A DNA stretch of 20,434 nt. Source: Deltaproteobacteria bacterium. GTDB lineage: Bacteria > BMS3Abin14. Location of the stretch: the NCBI GenBank assembly GCA_013151915.1, contig JAADHJ010000048.1, positions 1 to 20,434 on the forward strand, read 5' to 3'. Position numbers and translations under genes: made by a program. The notes beneath the pieces are model-generated. The model ran no database searches, was not told the DNA's origin, and was given only the letters and a program-made list of their open reading frames with translations. Below, piece after piece: positions 762 through 16,958 of this stretch; the first letter of the stretch is position 1, and each line of letters opens with the position of its first letter.

Positions 762-1628
762 ATGTCGGATTCGATTCTGGTAACCGGTGCTACGGGAACC
801 CTTGGAAACCAGGTTGTGGAACAGTTGAGTCAGAGGGGTTACAAGGTGCGCGCGGCGGTACATTCTCCGGAGAGAGCCACGTCTCTTAACGGCAGAGCCA
901 ATGAGATAGTATCCCTCGACTTCAGCCGTCCTGAGACCTTTGAAAGGGCGCTGGACGGTATAGACAAGGTCTTTTTTCTCAGTCCCCCTACAGAAGACAT
1001 GGTGGAAACTGGAACAAGGTTTGCTGAATCGGCTAAAGAGGCGGGGGTCCGTCGCATCGTCCGCCAATCGGGCATGGGGGCTGATGCCGATCCGGGCATA
1101 ACCCTTGGGCACTGGCACCGGGGCGTCGAACGGGCAATCGAGGATACGGGAATGGAGTGGACCCACCTTAGACCGAACTCCTTCATGCAGAATTTCGTCG
1201 CCTTCATGTCACAGACGATAAAGGAACAGGGGACCTTCTACCTTCCATGGGGCGACGGCAATATCAGCCTTGTGGATGTGCGGGACATTGCAACGGTGGC
1301 GGTGGAGTCACTGACAGGCGATGGACATGAGGGACAATCATATGAGATCACAGGTCCTGAAGCCCTGTCTGGCGAGGATTGCTCCCGGATCTTTTCGGAA
1401 GTACTGAACCGGACCGTTCAGTACGTTGATGTCCCTGAAGATGCTGCCAGACAGTCCATGCAGGGCATGGGGATACCGGATTGGTACGTCGATGTCATCA
1501 TGGAGCTGTATGCTATCAACAAGGCCGGATATACAGCCGAAGTGAAAGATACTGTGGCGCGGGTTACGGGTAAAGATCCGCGTCATTTCGAGCAGTTCGT
1601 CCAGGATTACGTTGAGGTGTTCAGTTAG
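762..1628 (+). CDS. NmrA-like NAD(P)H-binding protein (atypical SDR / Rossmann fold)
   Basis: MSDSILVTGATGTLGNQVV is a Rossmann GxxGxxG N-terminus typical of the NmrA/SDR-a family. AGGAGG sits 6 nt before the ATG at 762; the track ORF from 708 is an upstream extension. Confidence 0.8.
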   Translation: MSDSILVTGATGTLGNQVVEQLSQRGYKVRAAVHSPERATSLNGRANEIVSLDFSRPETFERALDGIDKVFFLSPPTEDMVETGTRFAESAKEAGVRRIVRQSGMGADADPGITLGHWHRGVERAIEDTGMEWTHLRPNSFMQNFVAFMSQTIKEQGTFYLPWGDGNISLVDVRDIATVAVESLTGDGHEGQSYEITGPEALSGEDCSRIFSEVLNRTVQYVDVPEDAARQSMQGMGIPDWYVDVIMELYAINKAGYTAEVKDTVARVTGKDPRHFEQFVQDYVEVFS

Positions 1629-3028
1629 ATAATGCGGAAATTTTCCACCAGGGTACAGCGCCGCTGCCGTGTATAAGTGCGCGCCGAGGTTAACCCCTCA
1701 CCTGTCGGCCCGGCGATGGTGAAGGCGGTGTGGCCTTCGCCACCAAGACCAAGCCCGGCATAGGAGGGACCGTTCTTGACAAAAAGCGTGGTCTGAATGG
1801 CCCGGGCGAAGGCTGTCATGTTGTCCACATTGGTCGAGTGCATTATGGCCGTGTGCCGGTTGCCCTGTTCCACCTCTACGGCAAAATTAATTCCTTCCTG
1901 GACATTCGCCACTCGCACGATGGGCATGACGGGCATCATCTGCTCAATCCAGACAAGGGGGTGATCCTTACCGGCCTCGAATATGGCCAGCCGATACTCT
2001 TCCCCCAGTTCTATGCCCACCTCTTTGAGGATTACCTGGACATTTTTCCCGATAAAGGCGGGGTTGATCCTTCCCTCTTTGGTAACCACCAACTCTGTGA
2101 CCTTTTCCGCCTCGTCAGGTGTCAGGAAGTAGGCCTTGCCGGTTTCCTGCATGAACTTGATCAGGCAATCGACCACTTCGTCTACAGCGAGAACCTCTTT
2201 TTCACAGGTGCAGAAGATATTATTGTTGATGCTCGCTCCATCGACGATAGATTTGGCCGCATTTCGTATGTTGGCAGTTTCGTCCACCAGGACAGGCGGA
2301 TTTCCGGCGCCGGCCCCGATAGCTTTTTTACCCGAACGCAAGACCGCATTCACCGCCGCCTTGCCGCCTGTGGCCACCAGCATGTTGACCTTCGGATGTT
2401 TCATGATCTCCTTGGCCGTTTCCAAGGTAGGATGGCTGACGGAAGAGATCAGGCCGACAGGCCCTCCAACATCGACGATGGCCTGATGGAGCAGCCGAAT
2501 CATACCTGTGCTGGTCTCCCTGGCGCTGGGGTGTGGGTTGAAAACCACGGCATTTCCAGCGGCTATCATGCTGATGGAATTATGAATTACGGTGCCGGTG
2601 GGATTTGTGATGGGCGTCAGGGAACCGATAACTCCTACCGGGGCGTACTCCAGAAGAGTCAGGCCGTCGTCGCCGCTTTTGGCAACAGGTTGAATGTCCT
2701 CCGTACCGGGCGTTTTTGTGGAACAGAGAATGTTTTCCTTGACCTTATCCTCGAAACGGCCCAGCTTCGTTTCCCTTACCGCTATAGCGGACATCTTCTC
2801 ATTGTTATCAAGAGACGTTTTTCTCATGGCGGCGATCATCTTGTCCCGCTGTGCGAGGGTCATGGAAATCAACTTTTTTTGTGCCTGGACAGCGCCATTG
2901 ACGGCTTCCTCGACTGTCCGGTAAATACCATCACCATCGGGTTCGGCAACCGCAGGATTCTCCTCGCTCACGAGATTTTCCAGCACTTTCTGGATGACGG
3001 TGGTGACTAAATCCTGGTTGACATTCAT
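1625..3028 (-). CDS. pduP: CoA-acylating aldehyde dehydrogenase (PduP/EutE family) with N-terminal encapsulation-peptide-like helix
   Basis: ALDH-superfamily protein whose N-terminus (MNVNQDLVTTVIQKVLENLV) is followed by an acidic linker, as in PduP. The likely start is M30 of the track ORF, preceded by AAGGAGGAG. The upstream track extension starts with GTG and overlaps the neighbouring gene. This is the last gene of the minus-strand operon. Confidence 0.85.
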   Translation of the reverse strand: MNVNQDLVTTVIQKVLENLVSEENPAVAEPDGDGIYRTVEEAVNGAVQAQKKLISMTLAQRDKMIAAMRKTSLDNNEKMSAIAVRETKLGRFEDKVKENILCSTKTPGTEDIQPVAKSGDDGLTLLEYAPVGVIGSLTPITNPTGTVIHNSISMIAAGNAVVFNPHPSARETSTGMIRLLHQAIVDVGGPVGLISSVSHPTLETAKEIMKHPKVNMLVATGGKAAVNAVLRSGKKAIGAGAGNPPVLVDETANIRNAAKSIVDGASINNNIFCTCEKEVLAVDEVVDCLIKFMQETGKAYFLTPDEAEKVTELVVTKEGRINPAFIGKNVQVILKEVGIELGEEYRLAIFEAGKDHPLVWIEQMMPVMPIVRVANVQEGINFAVEVEQGNRHTAIMHSTNVDNMTAFARAIQTTLFVKNGPSYAGLGLGGEGHTAFTIAGPTGEGLTSARTYTRQRRCTLVENFRII

Positions 3029-3086
3029 TTTACTCCTCCTTGTTCGCGCTTCATCATCAAGTTTCGTCCGTAATATCTTTTTAAAG

Positions 3087-3668
3087 TCAGTTGCCGCAGG
3101 CTGCCAGAAAAACACCGCCGATCAGAATCTGCAGTTCCCGCCGATCCAGCGGCAAACCTTCCTTTTCAAGAGCAAGAGCCAAAGATTCCTCCAGATCATG
3201 GATCCATCCTGTATCCCGAAGGCCGGGCGTCAGAACCGATCTGAAATTTTCGGACCAGCGTTCCATCTCGACGAAAGCTTGAGTAACGGGTTCCGCGACC
3301 CGCATATCCTGTTCCACGGTTCCGCCGCTAATGCCGATGGCCCCCACAACTTCCCCATCGAACCAGAGAGGAAAACCGCCGCCGAACAGAATGATCCTCC
3401 CACCGTGCGTGTTCTGAATCCCGGAAAGTACACCGTCTGACCGGGCCAACCTGCCAAGCTCATCCGTTGGCATTCGAAGGGAAGCCGCAGTGAAAGCCTT
3501 GGAACGCGCTATCTCGGAACTGGCTGGAAGCGCCCCCTTCATACGGGCGAAAAATTGGAGGGAGCCCTCCTCATCCGCCAGGGCTATGGCCATGGGAACT
3601 CCCATATCCCGAGCGGCCGCTTCGGCAACAGCGCAAAGGATCCGGGCTATCGAATAGGGAAGCTTCAT
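3087..3668 (-). CDS. DUF336 / GlcG-like (PduO C-terminal-domain-like) heme-binding protein, stand-alone
   Basis: The motif GGGFPLWFDGEVVGAIGISGGTVEQDMRVA matches the GlcG/HbpS/PduO C-domain signature. It carries about 55 extra C-terminal residues of unknown nature. Confidence 0.75.
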   Translation of the reverse strand: MKLPYSIARILCAVAEAAARDMGVPMAIALADEEGSLQFFARMKGALPASSEIARSKAFTAASLRMPTDELGRLARSDGVLSGIQNTHGGRIILFGGGFPLWFDGEVVGAIGISGGTVEQDMRVAEPVTQAFVEMERWSENFRSVLTPGLRDTGWIHDLEESLALALEKEGLPLDRRELQILIGGVFLAACGN

Positions 3669-3681
3669 TATCTCGAACCTC

Positions 3682-4254
3682 TCATAAGGAACCCTCCAGG
3701 ATGGTTGCCAGTGCTTGATTCACCGTTGCTTCCACTTCCATGGCCCAAGCCAGGACAAAGATCAGATCCCCCAGCCGGTTGAAATAGGTGAGGAGACGTT
3801 CCGCCCTCCCCGACTCCATGTTCAGTTGAACGATGGCACGTTCGCCCCGGCGACAGACCGCCCTGGCGACATGAAGCACAGCGCTGTCAATTGAACTCCC
3901 AGGGATGACAAATCGTCCAGGCGAACCGTGGGATTCCTGAAATTCATCGATCCATTTTTCGATCTTCCTGACGTCCTCTTCACCGATGCGTTTTTTCAAT
4001 GAAATCCGGCTGTCGGGATTGGAGGCCAATTCCGAACTTGCGATGAAGATGTCCTCCTGCACGGAAAATATGACATCTCTTGCAGGATCGGACGTAATCA
4101 GGGCACGGGCGGTTCCGAGGTGACACTGGAGTTCGTCGAGAATACCATAGGTTTCGACACGCGTGTCACTCTTCCACACGGACTCACCGCTCAAAAGCCG
4201 TGTGCGCCCCTCGTCCCCTTTTCGGGTATATATCCTTTCCTCCGTGTCCCTCAT
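3682..4254 (-). CDS. pduO: PduO-type ATP:cob(I)alamin adenosyltransferase (N-terminal PduO domain only)
   Basis: IYTRKGDEGRTRLLSGESVWKSDTRVETYGILDEL matches the PduO-type adenosyltransferase N-terminal signature. At 190 aa it is the catalytic domain alone. Confidence 0.85.
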   Translation of the reverse strand: MRDTEERIYTRKGDEGRTRLLSGESVWKSDTRVETYGILDELQCHLGTARALITSDPARDVIFSVQEDIFIASSELASNPDSRISLKKRIGEEDVRKIEKWIDEFQESHGSPGRFVIPGSSIDSAVLHVARAVCRRGERAIVQLNMESGRAERLLTYFNRLGDLIFVLAWAMEVEATVNQALATILEGSL

Positions 4255-4389
4255 TGATAACCTCGCAAAAAGTCATCAACGCGCCCATTGAAGGGCGCCC
4301 AAATCGAAGATTTGTGAGGAAAGTGAAAATGACACTTTTCGCTTTCCGTGGAGTAAAAAGCCATTAACGGACTTTTTACGACCCTATCT

Positions 4390-4659
4390 TTACTGAACGT
4401 CAATTTCATCAATAATCCCAATGATCGTTGCGTCCACGGGACACCCATCATCGCCTACCGCCTGCCGGGCACCACTCCCCTGAACAACAAAGACTCTTTC
4501 CCCCACACCGGCTCCCACAGCATCGATAGCAACCAGCGTCCCACCCTGGGGTTCCTCTGTCCTGGGATCCAGCGGCTGGATGACCTGGATCTTGCTGCCA
4601 ACCAGATTTTCATGCTTGCGTGTGGCTACGACTGTCCCAATGACGCGGGCGATTATCAT
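4390..4659 (-). CDS. pduN: BMC vertex pentamer protein (PduN/EutN/CcmL family, BMC-P)
   Basis: 89 aa with the MIIARVIGTVVATRKHENL N-terminus typical of EutN/PduN. AGGAGG ribosome-binding site upstream. Confidence 0.9.
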   Translation of the reverse strand: MIIARVIGTVVATRKHENLVGSKIQVIQPLDPRTEEPQGGTLVAIDAVGAGVGERVFVVQGSGARQAVGDDGCPVDATIIGIIDEIDVQ

Positions 4660-4683
4660 GACGTTTTTCCTCCTTAACGGGGA

Positions 4684-5490
4684 TCAGAATTCCTCATTAT
4701 CAGCCATCAGTATCCCATACCGGGCGGCAAGATCCTGAGCCAAAGGCGTGAAGCGCCATTGCGGCTGGACCATGACTGCAGCACCCAGACGTTGGGCGTG
4801 GTTGATGTCAGCCGCAGTAACCAGCGGACCCGCCGGCCTGAAGACCCTTCCATGTGTATCCGGGACGCCGGCAGTCCCTTCTTCTTGAAGATTTTCCCTG
4901 CTCAGAACGGTGTTCACTGTGTCTCGCAACCTGCCTACATCGGTCAACCGGCAACCGTAGGAAACCAGAGTGTCGAGGATATTGTCCATGGCATCCCGCA
5001 GGGCCTTCGATCCTCTGTGGAAGCCCAGTTCCTTCCGCCCATAGGCCGTGGGATCGACTCCATTTCGAGCCACGATCACCGGTTTGCCCATAAAAAGGCC
5101 GTGGAGAATACAGTTCGTTGCCGTGTTGTCGGCAATGAGCATCCTGATCTTGGCAGCAGTGTTGACGCTCAGCAAAGGCACGATCACCGCCCGGACCTGC
5201 TTGAGACATCCGAGCCAGTTCGCAGTGGAAACCCGGCCCTGATGGGGAAACCCGGCCAGCCCGTCGTGTATGACCGGTGCGTACAGCTGTTCGGCAGACG
5301 TAGTGAAGACCATCCTCACCTCATATCCGTCGAGGATAAGCCGGCGAAGCTGGTTCACAACCTCGCCCATTCCGACGGTAGCTCCCGAAAAAACCGCCAG
5401 CACAATTCCCTTACTGCCATCGGCGCCTACGATCGCGGCCACTTTTCCGACAACCTCATTGACGATATTCTGTATGATGCGCCCATCCAT
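4684..5490 (-). CDS. BMC-associated protein: PduM-like N-terminal helix + flavoprotein-fold (HFCD/PF02441-like) core + PduM-like C-terminal motif
   Basis: The N-terminus MDGRIIQNIVNEVVGKV is an amphipathic helix resembling encapsulation peptides and the PduM N-terminus. The middle resembles the flavoprotein (Dfp/CoaC-like) family: LAVFSGATVGMGEVVNQLRRL...VRMVFT and VIVPLLSVNTAAKIRMLIADN...PVIVARN. The C-terminus has a TPLAQDLAARYGI motif reminiscent of PduM. Functional assignment is tentative. Confidence 0.5.
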   Translation of the reverse strand: MDGRIIQNIVNEVVGKVAAIVGADGSKGIVLAVFSGATVGMGEVVNQLRRLILDGYEVRMVFTTSAEQLYAPVIHDGLAGFPHQGRVSTANWLGCLKQVRAVIVPLLSVNTAAKIRMLIADNTATNCILHGLFMGKPVIVARNGVDPTAYGRKELGFHRGSKALRDAMDNILDTLVSYGCRLTDVGRLRDTVNTVLSRENLQEEGTAGVPDTHGRVFRPAGPLVTAADINHAQRLGAAVMVQPQWRFTPLAQDLAARYGILMADNEEF

Positions 5491-5499
5491 GATAAGAAC

Positions 5500-6390
5500 C
5501 TAGGCCATCTTCCCACTTGACCGCATTGACATGGAGGACACCTGTTCATCGAAGCAGGTCAGGGCGATTCCAAGAGGTGTCACCAGCAGTGGATTACAGG
5601 GCTGTACAACCTCCAGGCCCGTCTGGTCCTGCATCACCTGGGCGATACCTGGAAAGCAGCTGGTGCCCCCCACCAGATAGATCGTCTCAATCGAGGGAAA
5701 CCCTGTTAAGTGGCGCTTTACAATGGAACCCATTTTCTCGAAAACCGGTCGGACAAGGTGGATGATCTCCATCTGCCGGGTGGTATCGCGTTTGAGTTTC
5801 TCCGCCAGGTGGGAGTCTATTTTAAAGTTGCCCGCAAGGACCAGATCCACGTGGATGCCGCCCGTCGGTTCATCGGCTGAATATATAACCTCTCCACCCT
5901 CCAGGATGGAGATCCCCGTCGTTCCCCCACCGACATCAACCACGGCGCCATCCATGATTTCCAAAGCCCGTGAGGCTGCGCTTGGTTCATCCATCATGCC
6001 GACCACTTCCAGCCCGGCCGCCTCCAGAATATTGGAAAATGCCCTGGCATTCGGCCCGGAGGTACCGGGCGGGTAGGCGACCGCGGCAGACCGAATGGGA
6101 TAGCCGCCTTCCTGAAGGTCCTTCACCTGCCGGCGCAGGATCGCAACAGCTCCCAGGTAATCGAACACCAGCCCGTCCCGGACACTTGAATGGCTGCGGG
6201 TGAGCGCTCCAGCCACCGGATTTCTTTCGGCATCCACCACCGCCGTCACGATGTATGCTGTGCCAAGATCAACGCCTGCGGACAGGGGTCCATCGACTCC
6301 CCGCTTACCGTTCAGGTCCAGAGACAATGCGAAGGCATTTATCCTTCCATTTGCCGTTTCGTTGACATGGTTTGACAGGTTCCGGTTCAC
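5500..6390 (-). CDS. eutJ: EutJ-like actin/Hsp70-fold ATPase (putative chaperone)
   Basis: GVDLGTAYIV, VVDVGGGTTGISIL and EPTGGIHVDLVLAGN match EutJ. A GTG start overlaps the stop of the upstream gene (GTGA), suggesting translational coupling. Confidence 0.85.
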   Translation of the reverse strand: MNRNLSNHVNETANGRINAFALSLDLNGKRGVDGPLSAGVDLGTAYIVTAVVDAERNPVAGALTRSHSSVRDGLVFDYLGAVAILRRQVKDLQEGGYPIRSAAVAYPPGTSGPNARAFSNILEAAGLEVVGMMDEPSAASRALEIMDGAVVDVGGGTTGISILEGGEVIYSADEPTGGIHVDLVLAGNFKIDSHLAEKLKRDTTRQMEIIHLVRPVFEKMGSIVKRHLTGFPSIETIYLVGGTSCFPGIAQVMQDQTGLEVVQPCNPLLVTPLGIALTCFDEQVSSMSMRSSGKMA

Positions 6391-7007
6391 ACTTCTTTTC
6401 CTGTGAGGCGCTGCAAACTGGTTTCCGCGGCACTGGTAGCCCGTTCAACATCAGACTGTTTTCCACCGAGGTATAGGCGACCCACCGCACCGTAGGTCCT
6501 GCAATCCACAAGGGTGATGCGTGAGTTTTTTTCCGCCTCGTTGGCCGCGAGTGTAATGTAGGCCGCGGGTTGAACTTCCAGGATGTAAAGATCCTGCCCC
6601 GGAAGCAGCATCGAGCTGAGGCGTGAAACGTTGACCATCTGGGCGTGATAGGGGTTGACCTTGTGGATCACCTGAGAACTGAGGATCTTCGGTTTGATCC
6701 GGTCCTCGATCTTCAGTCCAAGTGTCTTCAGAACCGCTTGACCGGCGTGCTTCACCTCCTCCTGGGTCTGGGCGTGAAATTCCAGAACACCAAAGTGTCT
6801 TTCCACCACCATCATTCCAGGCTGGACGTTGGCCGATTTGAGGGCCGCGTCGGTCACATCGTTTATCTTGACCCCTGGAGATATCTCCACCAGGATTGCA
6901 GCCATCCCCGGAACAGGAATATAACCCCGGGCATTGGCCCCCATATAGGCGGCAAACTGGGGCTGTAATCGATCCAGGTACACGTATGAACGTAGTTCCA
7001 CTGTCAT
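6387..7007 (-). CDS. BMC-T shell protein (tandem permuted BMC domains, PduB/EutL-like, short form)
   Basis: Two BMC-like repeats (DAALKSANVQ..., AANEAEKNSRITLV...GRLYLGGKQSDVERATSAA) in 206 aa. The distinctive N-terminus ELRSYVYLDRLQPQFAAYMG suggests a permuted order like PduB/EutL. Confidence 0.75.
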   Translation of the reverse strand: MTVELRSYVYLDRLQPQFAAYMGANARGYIPVPGMAAILVEISPGVKINDVTDAALKSANVQPGMMVVERHFGVLEFHAQTQEEVKHAGQAVLKTLGLKIEDRIKPKILSSQVIHKVNPYHAQMVNVSRLSSMLLPGQDLYILEVQPAAYITLAANEAEKNSRITLVDCRTYGAVGRLYLGGKQSDVERATSAAETSLQRLTGKEV

Positions 7008-7555
7008 TTTTCTCTCCTTGCCGAACTATCGCCCGGCTTTCCCCTGGTCCTTTTTCCCGCAGCTCCACTCTTGCGGCCTGAAGTCTTACGGCCTGTTTTT
7101 CTTGGAGTGCTTTTTTTCCCGGCTCCTGTGGAATCCGGATCAGGTTTTTCTTTAGCAGCAGTCACGGCAACCTCGATCTCCATGGAAGCCGATTCCGCTT
7201 CGGGTTCCACGGCCGGTTCGTCTGAACTCTTCTCAGAGGGCTCAGGCTCTTCCTGCACCTTTTCGAGCTCATCCGGAGCAGTGGGCGCGGACGGTTTGAT
7301 TGGAATCTGATCGTCCGGCCGGGGGATCACGTGACTGGCAGTGAGAGTACCGATCTTTTCAGCCGCCGCGGTTCCCGCAGCCACCGCGGCCTGCACTGCT
7401 CCAACGTCACCGAGAAACTTGACCGTAACCAGCCCCTCCAGTGTTATTTCGTATCCGAGGAAAACCACATCGGCTGACTTCGTGGCCGCATCCGCCGCTT
7501 CAATGGCGGCTGTGTATCCCATGGTTTCGATAAGACCAAGGCTTCGTTTTTTCAT
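7004..7555 (-). CDS. BMC-H shell protein (PduA/EutM-like) with ~95-aa disordered acidic-then-basic C-terminal tail
   Basis: Canonical BMC domain (LGLIETMGYTAAIEAADAATKSADVVFLGYE...GDVGAVQAAV...HVIPRP). It is followed by a Pro/Glu-rich acidic stretch and an Arg/Lys/Gly-rich terminus (KKSTPRKTGRKTSGRKSGAAGKRTRGKPG). Confidence 0.85.
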   Translation of the reverse strand: MKKRSLGLIETMGYTAAIEAADAATKSADVVFLGYEITLEGLVTVKFLGDVGAVQAAVAAGTAAAEKIGTLTASHVIPRPDDQIPIKPSAPTAPDELEKVQEEPEPSEKSSDEPAVEPEAESASMEIEVAVTAAKEKPDPDSTGAGKKSTPRKTGRKTSGRKSGAAGKRTRGKPGDSSARREK

Positions 7556-7608
7556 TGGACGCCTCTACCTTTCCAGTTCAATTTTGACAACCCGCCCCGG
7601 GATGCATG

Positions 7609-8109
7609 TTACGCGTACATCCCGCCTGATGGACTTTTTGCGAGGCCATCAATTTTAGCTATGGCTTCTCTGACCAGCTGTTCCAACTGCTCCTGGGAAA
7701 ACTTGATGGGACAAAAAGCATCCGGCTCGCCATCAGATCCGTCGGCGAGGATCATGGGATTGCCCTTCACCAGACGCGCTGCGTTGGCCCCGAGGTTCCT
7801 CAAGGGTGTTTCTTCCAGGGGTCCGGGACCAAGGATGAAAAGCGGTGTTTTCTCCGGCAGATCCCGGTGGTGTAAAACCGCGAATCCCCGATCTTCGTCA
7901 ACACCGACCCCCACGCCGACCGGTGACCTGTCGGCAGCTTGTTTGGCCATGTTTTCAGGGGGACCCTGTTTCGCCTCGAAGATCTTTGCGGGAACACCCT
8001 CTTCTTCCAGGCCCAGCAGGATTCTTTCCACTATCCTGGAGCCGGAAAGCCCCGTCCCATAGATATAGACGGCGGGTTTGTCTTCAGGTTGTGCGAACCT
8101 CGGATTCAT
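7609..8109 (-). CDS. pduH: Diol/glycerol dehydratase reactivase small (beta) subunit (PduH/DhaG/GdrB-like) with C-terminal extension
   Basis: LGLEEEGVP, SPVGVGVGV and LRNLGANAARLVK match DhaG/PduH. An extra ~45 C-terminal residues contain an amphipathic helix (SQEQLEQLVREAIAKIDGL). Confidence 0.8.
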   Translation of the reverse strand: MNPRFAQPEDKPAVYIYGTGLSGSRIVERILLGLEEEGVPAKIFEAKQGPPENMAKQAADRSPVGVGVGVDEDRGFAVLHHRDLPEKTPLFILGPGPLEETPLRNLGANAARLVKGNPMILADGSDGEPDAFCPIKFSQEQLEQLVREAIAKIDGLAKSPSGGMYA

Positions 8110-8120
8110 GGCCGATTCTC

Positions 8121-9944
8121 TCAGTTTTCCCCGTTCACGTACGCCAAAACCAGTCCTGTCGCAACAGCATTGCGTGGACCCTCCACACCCCTGACATTGG
8201 CTCTGCCGGTCACCACTCCACTTTCCACAAGGACATCGGAGATCATTTTTGGGATCTCAAAATCAAGCGCCGATCCTCCAACAAGAGCGACAAAGCTGAT
8301 GAGCCGGATATTGCCGGCAGGAGCGATCCTCTCAAGGGCACGCAACGCATTTCGAACGAAAACCCTTTTTTTCGCATTCTGACGAACCTGAACGATCTTC
8401 GATAAAGGTTCGCTGATCTCCAGGGGAATGGGCCCTTCACCGCCAAGAACCACAACTCGTCCAAAGAGCCTGGGTTCGAGGGGTTCATGAAAAAACTGAA
8501 CCGAACCATCCTCATGACGCATATGAAAAAGGGTTTCCACCTTGGCCAGGGGATTAACCTTGATCCTTTCAGCCAGATCACGGTCGTCCAGCCCGAGTTC
8601 CGTATCGATGAGCAAGGTGACCATGTCTCCCGCACCGGCCAGATGGATGCTTTTGATCTCACCGGCCTCGCTGATCAGGGAAGCATCCGTCGATCCCCCT
8701 CCCAGGTCCAGAATGGCCATAGGAGGTTTGAGACCCGGCGTAGTGAGCGCGCCGCGTATAGCCATCTCAGCTTCTACACCCCCGATGTTGGTAGAAACCG
8801 AGATCTCCTCTTCCAGTTTCCTGGCAAGACGCTGCATGGGGAGTTTATGGGTTTTTACCATCGCTGCCAGTCCTACGGCATTACCCATGGAATACTCTCC
8901 CGCCAGGCTTCCTAAAACCCTTTGGGGTTTCAAGGTATCTACAGCGAGTATGTCCTGAACCTGGATGGCGCTCACAGGCTGATCCGTCAGGTCGGCCATG
9001 ACTGTCCGGACATGTTCGAACATTCCTCCCACATGGGTCCCAGCTTCGGCCTGAATTTCCAGCAGCGGAGAGACGAGAGCCACCTTTTTCATAATAGCTT
9101 CAGCCCCCTCCTCCACCTTCACCACTTCCTTCCGGTTTTCCCCCATCAATACGATGCTTCCAGCCGGGATTCGGCGTTCCTCGATGTCTCCCCTGGGTGT
9201 TTTAATCACCACGGCGCTTCGTGTGCCCATGAGAGCCCTGGCTATGGGGACCACCTGTCTGGTCTCATCGGGATCCAGATCAAAGAGCGTGGCAATATCG
9301 TAGGGGTTGGACAGCTTCTCGATCGTCCTGCCCTGCGAGGCGACCTCAACAGCCGCAGGCATGTCCAGGGGAACCCTGTCAACATGTCTTACCTCGTCCA
9401 CAATGGGGATAGACCTGTGCAGCCGGTTATTGATGAGCACCGCGTCGTCCTTCTGGACGATGGCACCAGCCACAATGAGGTCCCTCGAAATTGCCCTGGT
9501 CAACCGCTCGGCCGCTTCTTTGAAGCCGAATTCACCGGGAATGATCACGATCCAGGGTCCAGACACCTGGGTCGTTTCCAGTTGGTCGAGGGTGATGGTC
9601 GTCCCGATGCCAAGACCTAATCCTCCGGGGGTCCCGGGATTGTGACCGATCATGGCTGATTCGGTGATGACGGTTTCTGTGATCGTCTCCATGGCTACAT
9701 CACCGATGACAGGCGCAGCCTCGTTAAGAAGGATCAGGCTGAGGTCATTTCGCTCAAGTCCCGCCAACGCAAGGCTCTTATCCAGAGCATCGATGACCCC
9801 CAAAGCATTGCGTATGGTCCCCTTGATCCCTATGGTTCTTACCAGGGAACTGGAAAGTATGTCCGCTTTGCCCGCTGTGGCCACTCTCCCTATGGCAACC
9901 TCAGTCGAGTTGTTTCCAACGTCTACCCCGGCGATAAAAGTCAT
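8121..9944 (-). CDS. pduG: Diol/glycerol dehydratase reactivase large (alpha) subunit (PduG/DhaF/GdrA-like)
   Basis: 607 aa. An N-terminal ATPase motif (MTFIAGVDVGNNSTEVA) and a second actin-like motif (ILDLGGGSTDASLI) are typical of reactivase alpha subunits. Confidence 0.9.
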   Translation of the reverse strand: MTFIAGVDVGNNSTEVAIGRVATAGKADILSSSLVRTIGIKGTIRNALGVIDALDKSLALAGLERNDLSLILLNEAAPVIGDVAMETITETVITESAMIGHNPGTPGGLGLGIGTTITLDQLETTQVSGPWIVIIPGEFGFKEAAERLTRAISRDLIVAGAIVQKDDAVLINNRLHRSIPIVDEVRHVDRVPLDMPAAVEVASQGRTIEKLSNPYDIATLFDLDPDETRQVVPIARALMGTRSAVVIKTPRGDIEERRIPAGSIVLMGENRKEVVKVEEGAEAIMKKVALVSPLLEIQAEAGTHVGGMFEHVRTVMADLTDQPVSAIQVQDILAVDTLKPQRVLGSLAGEYSMGNAVGLAAMVKTHKLPMQRLARKLEEEISVSTNIGGVEAEMAIRGALTTPGLKPPMAILDLGGGSTDASLISEAGEIKSIHLAGAGDMVTLLIDTELGLDDRDLAERIKVNPLAKVETLFHMRHEDGSVQFFHEPLEPRLFGRVVVLGGEGPIPLEISEPLSKIVQVRQNAKKRVFVRNALRALERIAPAGNIRLISFVALVGGSALDFEIPKMISDVLVESGVVTGRANVRGVEGPRNAVATGLVLAYVNGEN

Positions 9945-9960
9945 ACACCGAAAACCCCGA

Positions 9961-10530
9961 CTATTTCTTTAAACGTCCGCGTCCCTCATACACCACCGCT
10001 GCTTCGTGGACCAGAGCGGCACAGACACGGGCGTCGTATTTGGATTCCAACTCTCCGGCGATGTCCAGGAGCTCCTGTTTGGTGGACCGGTAAGGTCTCA
10101 TAGCATTGTATATCTCCAGGACTCGTTCATCCGGGATTCTGGTCAGTTCCGCGGCTCTGCGCAGGTTTGCGGCCAGGCTTGGACGTCCCGCACTTTCAGC
10201 GATCTGGGCCTGATATTCCAGGGTTTCAGGGCGAATCTTAATGTCTTCGAAAGACAAGCTTCCTTCTACGACTTTGTCGAGAGTTATATCTTCGAGTTTC
10301 AGACCGCTGGCGGACTGGACCAAATCGGGCCGATTGTTGGCAAGAGGATAATCCCTTTTCGCGTCAAGCCCCTCTTTCGAGCCGGCGGGCTGCCGAGCGC
10401 CCCCGCCCGATTCGCCCTGTATCGCGGACATCACCTGCTTGACCACCTCCGCTACGCGATCGGGGGAAATATCAAGGCCTTTGGCCTTGATCATGTCTTC
10501 CACCTTTTTGGACATATAATCGTCAGCCAT
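9961..10530 (-). CDS. pduE: B12-dependent diol/glycerol dehydratase small (gamma) subunit with ~50-aa N-terminal extension
   Basis: The core (DYPLA...DITLDKV...LEYQAQIAE...RRAAELTRIPDERVLEIYNAMRPYRS) matches PduE/DhaB3. The N-terminal extension has an amphipathic helix (SPDRVAEVVKQVMSAI) followed by a Gly-rich linker. Confidence 0.9.
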   Translation of the reverse strand: MADDYMSKKVEDMIKAKGLDISPDRVAEVVKQVMSAIQGESGGGARQPAGSKEGLDAKRDYPLANNRPDLVQSASGLKLEDITLDKVVEGSLSFEDIKIRPETLEYQAQIAESAGRPSLAANLRRAAELTRIPDERVLEIYNAMRPYRSTKQELLDIAGELESKYDARVCAALVHEAAVVYEGRGRLKK

Positions 10531-10594
10531 GATTTCCTTTCCTTGTTACCGGGTTATCCTGCTATCCGCAGGAAAGTTTCAACCTGGCCTGGAA

Positions 10595-11233
10595 CTAGAT
10601 GGAAAGCTCAACCGTTTTCCTGTTCTGATCCACCGCCTGGACTTCTTTGTTGTGAAGCAGAGCCGCCAGCCCCTGGTAGCGGGGTCTGGCCATGGGATCG
10701 TTGCGAACAGGAACAGGATTGGGGCTCTCACCTTTTGCATACTTGGCCGCATTGCGTCCGATGGCTCTGAACGTCTCCAGTTCCACCAGAGGTGACTGGG
10801 AGAACAGCTCCAGGTTCTGCAGAGGAGCCAGGTCTTTCTGGTGGATCACTGTGGTTCCCCGGGAAAGAATGCCTATGCCGATTCCCGATCCACTGAGTTT
10901 AGCAGCCTCGTGACCAATGAATGCCACGTCAGCGGTCCTGTAAACCCTGACAAGTCTGGGATGAAGGCCTTCCTCTTCAATTCCGGCCATCAGTTCCCGC
11001 AGGACCTCCCTGTGGGGAAGCCCGATAATCGTCTTGGTCATTGTCCTGCCGAATGCCTGCGGGAGCCCGATAACGACCTCGCTACGATCAGTCCCCGGTT
11101 CAGCTTCTCCATCTTCGGTCATATCCATCGGTGGGACATCCACATCAGCGTTAAATCCGGAATCCTCTTCTCCCTGCATCTGCCCGAGGACCTCAAGGAT
11201 AATCTGTTTCACCATCTCTTCAGAAATTTTCAT
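10595..11233 (-). CDS. pduD: B12-dependent diol/glycerol dehydratase medium (beta) subunit with N-terminal encapsulation peptide
   Basis: The core (GIEEEGLHPRLVRV...LSGSGIGIGI.SRGTTVIHQKDL.PLQNLELFSQSPL) matches PduD/DhaB2. The N-terminus MKISEEMVKQIILEVLGQM resembles the PduD encapsulation peptide and is followed by an acidic linker. Confidence 0.9.
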   Translation of the reverse strand: MKISEEMVKQIILEVLGQMQGEEDSGFNADVDVPPMDMTEDGEAEPGTDRSEVVIGLPQAFGRTMTKTIIGLPHREVLRELMAGIEEEGLHPRLVRVYRTADVAFIGHEAAKLSGSGIGIGILSRGTTVIHQKDLAPLQNLELFSQSPLVELETFRAIGRNAAKYAKGESPNPVPVRNDPMARPRYQGLAALLHNKEVQAVDQNRKTVELSI

Positions 11234-11259
11234 TACATATATCCTCCACTCCGGCAGCG

Positions 11260-12927
11260 CTATACGTCCTCAGGACTGATTGCCTGGGGGATGTTCTTGA
11301 GTATCTCCCACCTTTCCCCATCCAGACGATACCCTGTCCCGGGCCCCTCGTAATCGTTGGGATCATTCACGGCACTCAGAACAACGAAATCATCATCGAA
11401 TATGGCGGAGGTATGGAGATAATCCCCGGAAACTTTCTGTTTGAGCATGTTCAGGACTCCTTCCGCCACGTCCTTGAAACCATGTTTTGCAAGAGCACGA
11501 ACCACATCCAGCCCGTTTCCTCCCCGTTTCATGAATTCGTCGATGCTGCGCAGATCCTCCGGTACGTTCCGATCGGGCACATCTTTGCTGCCATGGGCAT
11601 AAGTAACCGCTTCCACCTCTGCATCGGTAATCGGCGGCAATCGCAGTTCCTCAAAGATAGCCTGGAGCGCTCGGGCGGCTTTGTTCCGAATAGCGATAAT
11701 ATCCTCCTCATTCACCGGACGCAGGCCGCCATCGACCTGGAAATCCCTCTGAAGAACCAGATAATCATCGTAATCGTCACAATCGTGCGTGGATCCGGCG
11801 AACATGTTGTCGTAGTTGGGAACAGTGCTGTATCCCGAGAAGATAAAATCTGTGCCGGGCAGAAATTGCATGAGCATTCGTGCCGTATTGCGGATAGGAG
11901 AATGAGTGAAGGTCTGATCATTGCCGGACGCCACCTCCATGTCCATCAGGACGGTCGCGATGTTCTCAGCCAGAACCGCTCGAATCCCGGAAGGCACAGC
12001 CCCCGGAACTCCTATGCAGCTGATCGAACCGTTCTGAAGACCCTGTACACCTGCGCCCTTGGTGATCATGACACAGCGGATTTCGAGGTAGAGCATGGAT
12101 TTGCGTTCCGCATAACCCATCTGCACCTCTGAGCCCGTCCCGGAGGTGAACCTCATCTTCACTCCCCTAGAGGCGTAGGCCGATGCCAGAAAGGCCTTTG
12201 ACCAGGGGGTATCATCCCCATCAACGAAAACCTGCTCGGTGCCGTAAACGGAAACCGTTTCCGCGTATGCGGTCAGCCCCCGCATCCCCATGGTGAGTTC
12301 CAGCGCCTCTTCCACAGCGCACTGCGTCAGCACACCGGGACGACCCGTCTGGGAACCTACAAGTATGGAGAGCGCATTCATGGGAGCGTAGCGTCCCACA
12401 CCCACAGTGGTTTCCAGTTCCGTAAATCCGCGAAAAGCCCCTTCCGCCGCATCAGCTGCCAGAAGAGCGGGGGTATCTTTGAGGTTGGTGACATGGCCCT
12501 GGTTTGACGGTGTTCGCCTCGCCCGGAGCTTCTGCATGGTCATCATGAGCTCGACCACATTCATTACCTTGAGGATATCGAGGATCTTGGCCGGAGTCAT
12601 TCCGACAGCCAGGCGAACGATTTCGGATCTCGGTACATGGATGTCCACCAGCATACGGGCGAACTCCACCGAATCGATGGCCATGGCTTCAGCGGCCACT
12701 TCTGTGTCAATGCAGTGGTCGGCAATCCAGGTGTCGATCATATCGAATTCCCGGCGGGGTTTCCCGTCCAGTTCCACTACTTTTCCACTTTCAATCCTGA
12801 TCCCAGGTTCAGGGTCGTAGGGGCTATCCATAGCGACCAGACCTACTTCGACCCATTCTTTAATAAAGCCGTCCTTATTAACCGAACGATCGGCCAATAC
12901 CTGGAAGCGTTTCTGTCTTTTGCTCAT
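11260..12927 (-). CDS. pduC: B12-dependent diol/glycerol dehydratase large (alpha) subunit
   Basis: 555 aa. MSKRQKRFQVLADRSVNKDGFIKEW and many blocks (e.g. SGTGSEVQMGYAE..., TKGAGVQGLQNGSISCIG) are typical of PduC/DhaB1/GldA-alpha. Confidence 0.95.
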   Translation of the reverse strand: MSKRQKRFQVLADRSVNKDGFIKEWVEVGLVAMDSPYDPEPGIRIESGKVVELDGKPRREFDMIDTWIADHCIDTEVAAEAMAIDSVEFARMLVDIHVPRSEIVRLAVGMTPAKILDILKVMNVVELMMTMQKLRARRTPSNQGHVTNLKDTPALLAADAAEGAFRGFTELETTVGVGRYAPMNALSILVGSQTGRPGVLTQCAVEEALELTMGMRGLTAYAETVSVYGTEQVFVDGDDTPWSKAFLASAYASRGVKMRFTSGTGSEVQMGYAERKSMLYLEIRCVMITKGAGVQGLQNGSISCIGVPGAVPSGIRAVLAENIATVLMDMEVASGNDQTFTHSPIRNTARMLMQFLPGTDFIFSGYSTVPNYDNMFAGSTHDCDDYDDYLVLQRDFQVDGGLRPVNEEDIIAIRNKAARALQAIFEELRLPPITDAEVEAVTYAHGSKDVPDRNVPEDLRSIDEFMKRGGNGLDVVRALAKHGFKDVAEGVLNMLKQKVSGDYLHTSAIFDDDFVVLSAVNDPNDYEGPGTGYRLDGERWEILKNIPQAISPEDV

Positions 12928-12957
12928 TTGTCGCTCCCTTTTTTTTCCTGCTCTTTA

Positions 12958-13767
12958 TCAGATATAAGGCTCGGTCACAGGTTTGGGTACATCACCCCAT
13001 GCGCCCAACAACTTGATGCCAACCTCGCGGCCGGAAATCACAGCCTGGCGTACCGCACCGGAATCACCGCTGACCCAGATCATGACTTCGTTGGTCAAAC
13101 TGGTGCCTTTCGCCGGCGATGCATACCCTACGACCTCCACGTCCGCAGCCTTGACCGCGGTGTCGATCATAAGCACCCCAATAACCGCAGGGGCCCCGAG
13201 GATCAACCCGAACGCTTTTCCTTCGGGGGTATTGAACACCTTATGCAGTCCCCTGCTGGCCCTGGCCGTATACTGAAGCTCCAGATGCCCCTGATCGTTG
13301 GTATAAACGTCACCGAAATATTTGGGCAGCGTCTCAAGGGTGACCTCAACAGCGCGCCGGGCATCCGAAACGTCCTCGGCGGCAAACACGATCAGGTTTC
13401 CATGGCCCGCTCCACCTTTCGTATCCCTGGGCATTTCAATGGATACGATTTCAGTGTTGGTAGCCTTGACGGCATCGTCGGCAGCCATAATCTGCGGTCC
13501 GGCGCCGATACGACCACCGATAACCCCGATGGACCGATATTTATTATCGATTCCCATCAGATCCTGGATGATGGGATCCAGGTTTGCGATCACGATACCC
13601 TGGGTTTCCCCCAGGCCGACCCCGACGAACTCCGTCACCTGGACCAGGTCCTCCGAAGGCACCGGGTTGCTGGAACGCTGTTCCGGCGCGACTTTTTCAT
13701 CGGACTGGGCAGAGCCGACCCTGCTCATCACTTCCGCTAAAACTTTGTTAATTAATTCCTCTTGCAT
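12958..13767 (-). CDS. pduB: PduB-type BMC-T shell protein (tandem permuted BMC domains)
   Basis: Near-colinear match to PduB: RSIGVIGGRIGAGPQIMAADDAVKATNTEIVSIEMPRDTKGGAGHG...GDVY.N..GH.ELQYTARAS...VISGDSGAVRQAV. Confidence 0.9.
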   Translation of the reverse strand: MQEELINKVLAEVMSRVGSAQSDEKVAPEQRSSNPVPSEDLVQVTEFVGVGLGETQGIVIANLDPIIQDLMGIDNKYRSIGVIGGRIGAGPQIMAADDAVKATNTEIVSIEMPRDTKGGAGHGNLIVFAAEDVSDARRAVEVTLETLPKYFGDVYTNDQGHLELQYTARASRGLHKVFNTPEGKAFGLILGAPAVIGVLMIDTAVKAADVEVVGYASPAKGTSLTNEVMIWVSGDSGAVRQAVISGREVGIKLLGAWGDVPKPVTEPYI

Positions 13768-13820
13768 CGGTTATTTCCTCCTGGTTATATGCCGATGTCA
13801 TTCTCGATCCAGGACGATTT

Positions 13821-14108
13821 CTAACTGGACTCCACAGACTTGGGCAGGATCTTTTCCACATCCTGATGAGGCCTCGGAATGACGTGAACGGACACAACTT
13901 CACCGACCTTCTGGGCGGCGGCGGCACCCGCGTCGGTTGCGGCCTTGACGGCCCCGACGTCACCGCGGACCATGGTGGTCACAAGCCCGGCCCCGATCTT
14001 GACGTTGCCCACCAACACTACATTGGCTGCCTTGACCATGGCATCCGCGGCTTCAATGTTGGGGACCAGCCCCCTTGTTTCGATCATTCCCAACGCTTCC
14101 TTAATCAT
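13821..14108 (-). CDS. pduA: BMC-H shell protein (PduA/PduJ-like)
   Basis: [34 protein letters not shown]...GDVGAVKAA...HVIPRP. The likely start is M21 of the track ORF, preceded by a GGAGA ribosome-binding site. Confidence 0.9.
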
Positions 14109-14153
14109 GATACTTTCTCCTATCACCCTGCCGGGTACGGTAAACAACAGCTT

Positions 14154-14180
14154 CGGGGGGCGCTCCAACAGCAGCCCCCG
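14154..14180 (-). other. GC hairpin in gldA-to-shell-gene spacer (possible partial terminator/attenuator or processing site)
   Basis: CGGGGG...CCCCCG 6-bp GC stem with a ~15-nt loop. On the minus strand it is followed by AAGCUGUUGUUUA, which is only weakly U-rich. It lies in the 143-nt gap between gldA and the first shell gene. Confidence 0.3.
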
Positions 14181-14251
14181 TAGCTGTCACAAGGTTCTTT
14201 GAAAGGCTAAGCCGAACTCTCCTCATTTTGCTTCAGGATGCAATGTCACTC

Positions 14252-15358
14252 TCAATTCTGCCTTTTAAATTCTCGACCGAGAGCGTCTGCCGTCCAGATG
14301 GCCGATTCGACCATATCTGCCGTAACGGGGAACCAGGTGGCGTGTATTGTTTCCCCCTCCGCGGTCGTCGCCTCAGCCACTTTCCTGATATCTTCAGTTG
14401 TGGGGTTCACAAGCCCGATATCCTTGAGAGTAATGGGCAGGCCGACGCTTTCACAGAAATTGAGAACTTCGTAGATATCTTCCGAGGGTCTACCTTCGAG
14501 GACCAACTGGGTCAGGGTGCCAAAGGCCACTTTCTGACCGTGGTATTTATCGTGGGATTGCTCGAGCATGGTAAATCCGTTGTGGACGGAGTGAGACGCG
14601 GCGAGGCCTCCGCTCTCAAATCCCAGTCCGCTCAGAAGCGTATTGGCCTCGACAATGGCCTCGACAGCGGGCGTTACCGAATTTTTCTCCACCGCCAGTT
14701 TAGCCTGAAGGCCGGACTCCAGAAGGGTATCGTAGCAGAGTCTCGCCAAAGCCATGGCGGAAAGGGTGGGTGGTGTTCCGCCCGTCAGGACATTAGGCTT
14801 GCAGCTCTTTGCGCACGTGTCGGCCTCCCAGAAGGTGGCCAGAGCATCGCCCATACCCGAAACGAGAAACTCCACGGGGGCCTGGGCCACGACAGTGGTG
14901 TCAACGAGAACGCACTCAGGGTTTTTTGGGAGAACCAGGTAGCGTTCGAATACACCGTCGTCGGTGTAAATGACCGAAAGTGCTGAACAGGGAGCATCAG
15001 TAGCGGCGATGGTGGGCACAACAATGACGGGAACTTTCATCTCATGGGCCACGGCTTTCCCTGTGTCGATAACCTTGCCCCCTCCAGCGGCTATTACCAG
15101 GTCCGCTCCGTGGGCCTTTCCCACATCCACCAGCCGTTGAATCTCTTTGTCACAACACTCGCCGTTAAAACTCTCTGATCTACAGTCGATGTCTTTCTCC
15201 CTCAAGCTGGCCTCGATGGAACTGCCGCAGGATGAAAGAGCCGTCCGTCCTCCCGTCAAGAGAGCTTTAGTACCGAAATTACCGGCGTGAGTTCCGATTT
15301 CCTTAATAGTTCCGGCACCTTGAATGTACCTTGATGGCGCCAAAAGCAATCTTCCCAT
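14252..15358 (-). CDS. gldA: Glycerol dehydrogenase (GldA family, metal-dependent polyol dehydrogenase)
   Basis: Colinear with E. coli/B. stearothermophilus GldA: GGGKVIDTGKAVAH, VPTIAATDAPCSALSVIYTDDGVFERYL, TPAVEAIVEANTLLSGLGFESGGLAASH, HGQKVAFGTL, ATTAEGETIH. GGGAGGAGG ribosome-binding site upstream. It is the first gene of the minus-strand operon. Confidence 0.9.
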   Translation of the reverse strand: MGRLLLAPSRYIQGAGTIKEIGTHAGNFGTKALLTGGRTALSSCGSSIEASLREKDIDCRSESFNGECCDKEIQRLVDVGKAHGADLVIAAGGGKVIDTGKAVAHEMKVPVIVVPTIAATDAPCSALSVIYTDDGVFERYLVLPKNPECVLVDTTVVAQAPVEFLVSGMGDALATFWEADTCAKSCKPNVLTGGTPPTLSAMALARLCYDTLLESGLQAKLAVEKNSVTPAVEAIVEANTLLSGLGFESGGLAASHSVHNGFTMLEQSHDKYHGQKVAFGTLTQLVLEGRPSEDIYEVLNFCESVGLPITLKDIGLVNPTTEDIRKVAEATTAEGETIHATWFPVTADMVESAIWTADALGREFKRQN

Positions 15359-15787: not shown

Positions 15788-16186
15788 TTATTCACTATTC
15801 AGCATATAGAAAGAGGTGATGTTCGAACCCTCATGGAGAGCCCTGACAATTTGGGCCAGTTCCTTGGATTCAATGCTTTTCAGGACGTAAGCGTCTGCAC
15901 CGGCAACAACCGCCTCGTTTATGCTGTTTTCATCGTCATAAGACGACAGAACAACCACTTTAGTCTGAGGAAAGTTCTTCTTAAGCGTCCTGATAGTTCT
16001 GAAGCATGAAAAACTGTTTCCGTTCAGGTCGATCAAGCAGACGTCCGGCGGGTCGAGTCTCATCCGGTCGATGGATTGCATGCCGTCCCAGGAAGCATCC
16101 ACTGAAATGATATCTTCTTCACAATCAAGGCTGTATTTCAGTGCTGTTCTGTAAAGCGGATCTTGGTCAGCAAAAAATATTTTCAT
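15788..16186 (-). CDS. Stand-alone response-regulator receiver domain (CheY-like)
   Basis: MKIFFADQDPLYRTAL...CLIDLNG...VVVLSSY...YVLKS carries the receiver signature residues (acidic pair, Asp, Ser/Thr, Lys). GGAGGTGG ribosome-binding site before the ATG at 16186. There is no output domain. Confidence 0.8.
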   Translation of the reverse strand: MKIFFADQDPLYRTALKYSLDCEEDIISVDASWDGMQSIDRMRLDPPDVCLIDLNGNSFSCFRTIRTLKKNFPQTKVVVLSSYDDENSINEAVVAGADAYVLKSIESKELAQIVRALHEGSNITSFYMLNSE

Positions 16187-16229
16187 TACCACCTCCATTA
16201 TGTTTGGCAATAGAGGGTCGTCCTGAGGC

Positions 16230-16889
16230 TCACGCCCTGGTTTTCATCTCAATGGCGACCCTCATCGCTTCGACCCGGTTCTTGGCATGGATCTTCCGGT
16301 AAATGTTTTTTACATGGGTTTTAACCGTATCTTCACTGATGTGCAGGTTGCGCGCAATGTCCTTGTTGCACTTACCTTCCGCAATAAGGTTGAAAACTTC
16401 ATTCTCCCTTCTGGTTAACTGATCAAGGGGCCTTTGGAAAGATTCTTCCTCCCCATCACACTGGAGGGTCAGATTGGCCAGATATGGAGAGATCTTCTGC
16501 TCACCACGGTAAAAAGCTCTAACGATATCCCTGAGATCGTTGAGGCCGATGCTTTTGAGGAGATAGCCATCCGCCCCGGCTCTCATGGCGTCCTTGACGT
16601 ATTTTTCGTCCTTGAACGTGGAAAGTGCGATGATCCTCATTTCAGAAGATGTCTTCCTTATGATCTTGATTACCTCGATGCCCGAAAGACCCGGCATATC
16701 GATGTCGATAAGGCAAACGTCGGGGCAAAGGGCCTTAACCTTGTCCACAGCTGTAAACCCGTCCGTGGCCTCCCCAACGTACTCGAATCCGTTTTCCGCG
16801 GTGAACGAAAGTCTTAAACCGGCTCGCAGCAGTGGGTGGTCATCGGCCACAAACACCTTGATCAGTTCCTGGACTTCGTTACAGATCAT
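16230..16889 (-). CDS. NarL/FixJ-family response regulator (receiver + LuxR-type helix-turn-helix)
   Basis: Receiver domain (VFVADDHPLLRAGL...CLIDIDMPGLSGIE...IIALSTF...YLLKS) followed by a LuxR-type helix-turn-helix (LTRRENEVFNLIAEGKCNKDIARNLHISEDTVKTHVKNIYRKI). Confidence 0.9.
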   Translation of the reverse strand: MICNEVQELIKVFVADDHPLLRAGLRLSFTAENGFEYVGEATDGFTAVDKVKALCPDVCLIDIDMPGLSGIEVIKIIRKTSSEMRIIALSTFKDEKYVKDAMRAGADGYLLKSIGLNDLRDIVRAFYRGEQKISPYLANLTLQCDGEEESFQRPLDQLTRRENEVFNLIAEGKCNKDIARNLHISEDTVKTHVKNIYRKIHAKNRVEAMRVAIEMKTRA

Positions 16890-16958
16890 TGTCCTGTCCT
16901 TCAGGCCACCGCCTGAACCACATCTGTGATCAACAATTATTGAAAGCGGCTGACATCA

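Follow-up and report, generated by a model that had tools for sequence, protein, structure and literature searches.

How metabolosomes other than carboxysomes are positioned in the cell and inherited is an open question, for which the only handle in Salmonella is the shell protein PduK. A bacterial microcompartment (BMC) locus of a deltaproteobacterium, carried on a 20,434-bp contig of a metagenome-assembled genome (MAG; the whole contig is referred to below as the window), bears on this question, because it encodes a BMC-H shell protein that continues past its BMC domain as a long, charged tail. What could such a tail be for? The database label of the protein (NOY87480.1) says only 'BMC domain-containing protein [Deltaproteobacteria bacterium]'. 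A preliminary description of the DNA had reported the open reading frame (ORF) at 7004..7555 with an acidic and then basic, disordered and histone-like tail. The ORF exists, on the minus strand, which that description had left unstated, and the tail sequences quoted there are exact. The analysis below indicates that the conserved element of the tail is a polybasic tip, and we propose tentatively, at slightly less than even confidence, that the protein is a minor, PduK-like shell component whose outward-facing, flexible tail uses this tip to anchor the BMC to a polyanion such as DNA.

The protein has a single, non-permuted Pfam BMC domain (PF00936, amino acids (aa) 5-80, E=8e-25), beyond which the tail extends. 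In an AlphaFold2 (AF2) prediction of the monomer, made from a 13-sequence family alignment, the domain has a pLDDT of 85-95 and the order beta-alpha-beta-beta-alpha-beta. Sequences of the PDB align to aa 1-85 only, with PduA (3NGK) as the best single-domain match, and none of them matches past aa 85. Residue numbering corresponds to that of PduA. The edge residues K26 and R79 are kept and are invariant across the tailed family, whereas position 29 (N29 in PduA) is D or N in the family and D here, and H81 is replaced by D. The edge motif PRPH of PduA thus appears as PRPD, and PRPD-x-Q is invariant in the tailed family. The pore loop, G39-S40-G41 in PduA, reads L39-E40-G41 here (aa 39-41, window 7433-7441) and x-A-G in most relatives. 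Because L39-E40 replaces G39-S40, the hexamer pore is likely narrower and negatively charged in the source species. The domain can therefore be called canonical, as it was in the preliminary description, with regard to its fold but not with regard to its edge motif and pore loop.

The tail of about 100 aa consists of a Pro-rich junction, an acidic block, a short neutral stretch and a basic end, and its net charge as a whole is 0. Its charges are strongly segregated, with a split statistic of 26 compared to 7.0 +/- 4.2 in composition-preserving shuffles, a value reached in 1 of 20000 shuffles. The earlier expectation that the tail is disordered agrees with the AF2 model, in which it has a pLDDT of 42-57 and no predicted secondary structure. 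Eight diverse tails of the family yielded no Pfam match at E<=10, and this result and the lack of a helix in the model speak against a EutK-like helix-turn-helix (HTH) or another known domain in the tail; the distinction from EutK drawn in the preliminary description is thereby borne out. The protein contains neither Cys nor Trp.

The tail is in frame and under purifying selection. Both other reading frames of the tail are interrupted by stops, the comparison with a 98%-identical locus (L010) shows 5 synonymous and 2 conservative nonsynonymous nucleotide differences in the tail, and among close pairs the ratio of nonsynonymous to synonymous substitution rates (dN/dS) is 0.12-0.34 in the tail and 0.07-0.22 in the BMC domain. 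An artefact of annotation or assembly, or a read-through without function, could be argued from the origin of the contig in a MAG, from the last 10 residues (PGDSSARREK), which run past the ...KKTRGK end of close relatives, and from one MAG ortholog with an in-frame TGA at codon 102. Against this, the tail is found at every orthologous locus, in two phyla, and it is in frame with a dN/dS below 1 and a conserved terminal charge. The conservation data effectively refute the artefact, to which we assign a negligible probability, and a frameshifted or read-through tail is rejected on account of the stops in the other frames, the mostly synonymous substitutions and the orthologs that retain the tail. 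Of the two observations that could have told against the tail, namely its absence from all orthologs and its encoding in a frame other than that of the BMC domain, neither was made.

Conservation beyond close relatives was assessed at two levels. Tailed relatives with 45-98% identity were found by a word-indexed search, and in a profile search against 1.84 billion cluster representatives 104 of the best 150 matches were single-domain proteins with a tail, the median tail being 114 aa long. Of 92 cluster representatives, 85 had a C-terminal third with a more positive charge than the N-terminal one. A scan of genome contigs gave only two MAG loci; the relatives belong, as read from protein names, to Deltaproteobacteria and Terriglobales. 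Orthologous loci with readable context came from four assemblies retrieved by exact look-up, from about 30 metagenome loci checked by tblastn with the proteins of the window, and from two large contigs belonging to a clade of Acidobacteria in which one member bears the name Terriglobales. At all of these loci (~35, from Deltaproteobacteria and Acidobacteria) the tailed gene is flanked by pduH and the gene of a double-stacking BMC-T (BMC-T(dp)), in the shared order PduH, tailed BMC-H, BMC-T(dp), EutJ, and in all of them the tail is present. The untailed matches of ~92 aa in the metagenome scan are canonical BMC-H proteins in non-PDU contexts.

The 35 context-verified tails range from 53 to 329 aa in length and are rich in K (17%), P (16.5%), E (12%) and A (11%), while hydrophobic and aromatic residues together make up 6.8%. 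In 33 of them the last 20 residues have a net charge of at least +5. Upstream of this basic end, 15 tails are acidic, 11 close to neutral and 9 basic, with charges that span -19 to +14. Because nearly all tips are basic while the upstream charge varies, the conserved element, as read from these sequences, is a polybasic tip on a variable spacer and not a polyampholyte layout. The acidic-then-basic arrangement noticed in the preliminary description is real in the source lineage, but it fails as a hallmark of the family. The motif [KR][KR]T occurs near the terminus in 19 of the 35 tails, compared to 4.1 +/- 1.8 in shuffles, and only this motif and G[KR][KR] exceed the shuffle expectation, both counts being inflated by sequence relatedness. 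The basic terminus of the protein studied here holds a KRT that fits the former pattern, and its K148 and P151 are invariant in 13- and 14-sequence alignments. The 4-nucleotide (nt) stop/start overlap with the BMC-T gene, which had also been reported, is likewise real; the 98%-identical loci L010 and L011 have it too, but distant orthologs have a gap of 59-154 nt between the two genes, so that a conserved translational coupling was rejected.

An ortholog of 409 aa (L018 8001-9230) carries a 329-aa tail, most of which is formed by a 20-aa unit (KSKSEPVAEGKPxAEAAExV) repeated about ten times in tandem; the polybasic end is retained, and these repeats suggest that the spacer can expand freely in length. 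The acidobacterial (Terriglobales) clade of the family (P0187, P0280, P0210, P0161, P0168, P0169 and others; L092 and L093) has long, strongly acidic tails with a nearly invariant terminus, RKKEKVRKxKSKRK, and an unchanged PDU1D gene order.

Tailed hexamers as a kind are already known, as is the PDU1D locus type. PduK, EutK and CmcE are described examples (PMC12058022; Sutter et al., 2021), and the searchable text of the BMC catalogue mentions C-terminal extensions of BMC-H proteins of up to 200 residues and a clustering of extended BMC-H proteins on a tree (Sutter et al., 2021). Our unbootstrapped neighbor-joining tree of BMC domains agrees with this clustering, since it places the protein in a clade of tailed hexamers with PduK-type proteins, which have a Cys motif, and with proteins ending in a Rho_N-like segment, apart from PduA/J and from the PduA-like protein of the window itself. 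Like PduK, the protein combines an N-terminal BMC-H domain with a long, mostly unstructured C-terminal extension, its gene occupies the operon position of pduK, after pduGH, and both have a non-canonical junction (RPGD/RPDD, that is RP(D/G)(D/G), in place of RPH). Unlike PduK, it lacks the Cys-rich motif CNLCxDPxCPRxKGEPRSxC, a putative Fe-S site found in E. coli PduK (taken from the annotated pdu operon) and in 11 cluster representatives, and ends in a polybasic segment instead; a true PduK ortholog with the Fe-S motif is therefore rejected with regard to this motif. PduK loci are moreover of the PDU1A/B types (Salmonella, E. coli, Klebsiella), whereas the tailed protein here belongs to a PDU1D locus with BMC-T(dp). 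The separation from PduK made in the preliminary description is accordingly right for the missing Cys motif but overlooks the shared operon position and the clustering of the domain with PduK-type tailed hexamers.

EutK of EUT1 loci also joins a BMC-H domain to a C-terminal extension, which carries an HTH module thought to bind nucleic acid (PMC12058022), but the EutK extension ends in a folded HTH (PF16365), whereas the tail here has no domain match and no predicted helix. Some related tailed BMC-H proteins (P0231, P0238, P0219, P0228, P0235, P0237, P0252, P0267; L038 79-681) end in ELRxLARxxxxFPIxGRxISRANxxELL, which in three proteins matches Pfam Rho_N (PF07498) just below threshold (E=6e-5 to 1e-3) and may form a helix-extended-helix module by which a shell protein could bind nucleic acid. 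A more distant parallel is McdB, which in the accounts accessible to us is a disordered, charge-patterned protein on the BMC exterior that links the carboxysome to the nucleoid. In those accounts McdB is a separate protein with an invariant C-terminal Trp and works with the ParA-type ATPase McdA; the tail here is fused to a shell protein and has no Trp, and no ParA-like gene lies in the window. Literature searches on lysine-rich tails of BMC-H proteins and on PduK and the nucleoid returned no description of the tail type studied here. The near-universal polybasic end and the fixed place of the gene in PDU1D loci of two phyla were not found described in the searchable literature, and the searchable text of Sutter et al. 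(2021) holds no account of tail composition, polybasic end or function.

By analogy with PduK, the gene product would be a minor, hexamer-forming component of the shell in a PDU1D-type microcompartment with a B12 diol dehydratase. Because the edge residues K26 and R79 are retained, its BMC domain could tile into shell facets. The C-termini of BMC-H proteins lie on the concave face, which points outward in solved shells, as is stated for PduK (PMC9132943). From a concave-face C-terminus facing the cytosol, the disordered tail would project outward, six copies per hexamer, and act as a flexible spacer whose length and charge are free to vary, while the conserved polybasic tip would bind a polyanionic partner in the cell. 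Nucleoid DNA would be the most likely partner, with RNA, polyphosphate and an anionic membrane surface as alternatives. We prefer DNA because exclusion otherwise drives large particles to the poles, because sister tails end in the EutK HTH or the sub-threshold Rho_N segment, for which there are nucleic-acid-binding precedents, and because the window contains no ParA-type or PduV-type gene. Binding by the tip could then keep the organelles dispersed and inherited and not aggregated at the poles. In Salmonella, deletion of pduK leaves well-formed BMCs that are trapped at the poles, and the flexible C-terminal extension of PduK, on the concave outer face, was proposed to contact other cell components (PMC9132943; PMC13052382); PduK itself is a minor component of the shell, and neither shell nor core needs it in order to form (PMC9132943). 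More speculatively, the acidic block of the source lineage might fold back on the basic end, shielding it and tuning its binding, or might be a mere solubilizing spacer.

A bolder version, which we consider rather unlikely, is that the tip is a built-in nucleoid tether by which PDU1D BMCs are spread and inherited on chromosomal DNA without an ATPase of the ParA/McdAB type. If true, it would amount to a third, motor-free strategy of organelle positioning, in which dozens of flexible tails stick to chromosomal DNA, and by extension it would explain why tailed BMC-H proteins (PduK, EutK, those with Rho_N-like ends) recur across metabolosome types.

Several points weigh against polyanion anchoring as proposed here. 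The TGA mentioned above (L005 10304-10306, MAG PFL40) lies early in the tail, and the tail frame of this ortholog runs on intact past it, which could reflect an error in sequencing or a natural allele without the tail. Two of the 35 orthologs end acidic (L074 and the frameshift-like L058). The orientation of the tail is taken from other shells and not from the shell studied here, and polybasic tails are promiscuous. The BMC domain shares 37% identity with E. coli PduK and 56% with PduA/J, for which reason the function of PduK is transferred by analogy, and the neighbor-joining tree was built without bootstrap from ~85 columns. Finally, the tails show no enrichment of DNA-binding motifs of the SPKK type. 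Linker histone H1 and bacterial H1-like tails are rich in Lys, Pro and Ala, and the tails of the family resemble them in composition, some orthologs even having AKPKK repeats, yet there is no homology. The motif (S/T)P(K/R)(K/R) was observed 5 times compared to 2.8 +/- 1.6 in shuffles and P[KR][KR] 22 times compared to 18 +/- 3.6, and SPKK or AT-hook-type motifs were consequently rejected. The term histone-like in the preliminary description therefore fits the composition (K, P, E, A) only.

Three other functions have to be weighed against anchoring by the tip. The tails could form a passive polymer brush, in which six charged, disordered chains per hexamer keep the organelles from adhering to one another or to other parts of the cell by steric and electrostatic repulsion without a specific ligand. 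The great variation in length (53-329 aa), sequence and upstream charge (net -19 to +14), the ortholog that merely multiplies a 20-aa repeat, the low hydrophobic and aromatic content and the aggregation seen in the pduK deletion mutant (PMC9132943) would all suit a brush. It leaves unexplained, however, the polybasic character of the last 20 residues in 33 of 35 orthologs and the recurrence of [KR][KR]T close to the terminus, and in lineages with an acidic block the opposite charges would attract and not repel; we regard the brush as unlikely. A role in assembly, in which the basic end binds acidic BMC partners and drives condensation, shell closure or shell-to-shell contacts, seems to us quite improbable. 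Candidate partners could be the acidic linkers that follow the encapsulation peptides in PduD, PduE and PduP, BMC-T(dp), or the acidic blocks of neighboring tails. The gene always adjoins that of BMC-T(dp), to which it is translationally coupled here, the N-termini of PduD and PduP in the window have acidic stretches after amphipathic helices, and the block polyampholyte layout of the source lineage is of the self-associating kind. But the acidic block is missing in more than half of the orthologs and the start/stop overlap is not conserved, while the outer, concave position of BMC-H C-termini in solved shells and the dispensability of Salmonella PduK for shell and core formation (PMC9132943) are at odds with such a role.

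The basic end might also dock the BMCs to anionic phospholipids near the channel for diol or glycerol uptake. Among peripheral-membrane signals, multivalent polybasic C-termini are common, and the basic end is conserved. There is, however, no hydrophobic or amphipathic element beside the basic run, no AF2 helix and little hydrophobic or aromatic residue content overall, and no facilitator gene such as pduF was found in the window, which leaves membrane docking only a slim chance.

The tailed family provides a simpler and more easily read form of the PduK tail, reduced to a variable spacer and a conserved polybasic tip. Its occurrence in one locus type of two phyla leads to the directly testable hypothesis that the tail binds DNA or some other polyanion in a charge-dependent way, and the tail offers a minimal module for engineering the cell location of synthetic BMCs. 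Should the tail turn out to serve solely as a brush or spacer, what is described here would be an ordinary lineage-specific decoration.

The gene belongs to a B12 diol-dehydratase microcompartment locus for propanediol or glycerol degradation, all genes of which lie on one strand (Table 1). The order is iron-containing alcohol dehydrogenase, PduA-like BMC-H, PduB, PduCDE, PduGH, tailed BMC-H, BMC-T(dp) and EutJ, followed by a flavoprotein-like protein, EutN/PduN, a PduO-type adenosyltransferase, an HbpS-like protein and PduP. EutN/CcmL, PduB, BMC-T(dp) and PduCDE are thus all present as shell and enzyme components, while pduJ is absent from the locus. In the searchable text of the catalogue, PDU1D alone joins PDU enzymes with BMC-T(dp) and is listed for Proteobacteria and one Acidobacterium (Sutter et al., 2021). 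The gene content given there for PDU1D is that of the window, and with PduCDE, PduGH, PduP and BMC-T(dp) the locus is of the PDU1D type.

Table 1. Coordinates of the tailed BMC-H gene, its parts and its surroundings in the window.
Feature	Position	Strand	Remarks
Tailed BMC-H gene	7004..7555	minus	183 aa + stop, ATG start; NOY87480.1
Shine-Dalgarno-like sequence GGTAGAGG	7562..7569	minus	GAGG 6 nt 5' of the tailed BMC-H ATG
BMC domain, aa 5-80	7316..7543	minus	Pfam, AF2 and PDB comparison
Pro-rich junction, aa 78-94, PRPDDQIPIKPSAPTAP	7274..7324	minus	Family alignment
Acidic Glu/Pro-rich block, aa 95-129	7169..7273	minus	Net charge -12; some lineages only
Basic Lys/Arg/Gly/Ser/Thr-rich terminus, aa 147-183	7007..7117	minus	Net charge +13; family-wide conserved element (from sequence comparison)
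ATGA stop/start overlap, tailed BMC-H / BMC-T	7004..7007	minus	From the sequence; likewise in L010 and L011
CcmP/CsoS1D-like double-stacking BMC-T	6387..7007	minus	206 aa; next gene downstream in all orthologous loci
PduH, diol dehydratase reactivase small subunit	7609..8109	minus	Preceding gene in all orthologous loci
PDU1D-type locus	1625..15358	minus	All genes on one strand

A histidine kinase with a PocR domain and a pair of response regulators, LuxR-type and stand-alone, are encoded beyond the locus, at 15788-18650. No Rfam family reached its gathering score anywhere in the window (1-20434), and therefore no cobalamin riboswitch is present there. Regulation appears to use the PocR-sensor histidine kinase and the response regulators, whereas enterics use a PocR of the AraC type. 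Among the genes of the window, none was found to be ParA/McdA-like or PduV-like.

A few ORFs of the window call for correction. The PduA-like BMC-H ORF (13821-14168) yields 115 aa from its TTG start, whereas its homologs have 95 aa and begin at a later position, for which reason the true start is probably the ATG at 14106-14108. A GTG ORF at 6451-7068 (205 aa) is probably spurious, being an alternative frame over the tail and the BMC-T gene, and the same probably applies to the ORF at 4251-4451 (66 aa), which spans an element resembling a miniature inverted-repeat transposable element (MITE). This MITE-like element is ~115-130 bp long, with terminal inverted repeats of about CTCGCAAAAAGTC ... 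GGACTTTTTGCGA, and lies between eutN and pduO both in the window (4253-4382) and in L008 (12552-12681). In L010 (5649-5778) and L011 (861-990), which are 96-98% identical to the window, the gap between eutN and pduO is empty (36 nt), and the element lies in the opposite orientation at the pduH 3' end, immediately upstream of the tailed gene. At the corresponding site (7627-7652), pduH of the window has at its 3' end a sequence resembling the terminal inverted repeat, and PduH is 166 aa long in the window compared to 164 aa in L010.

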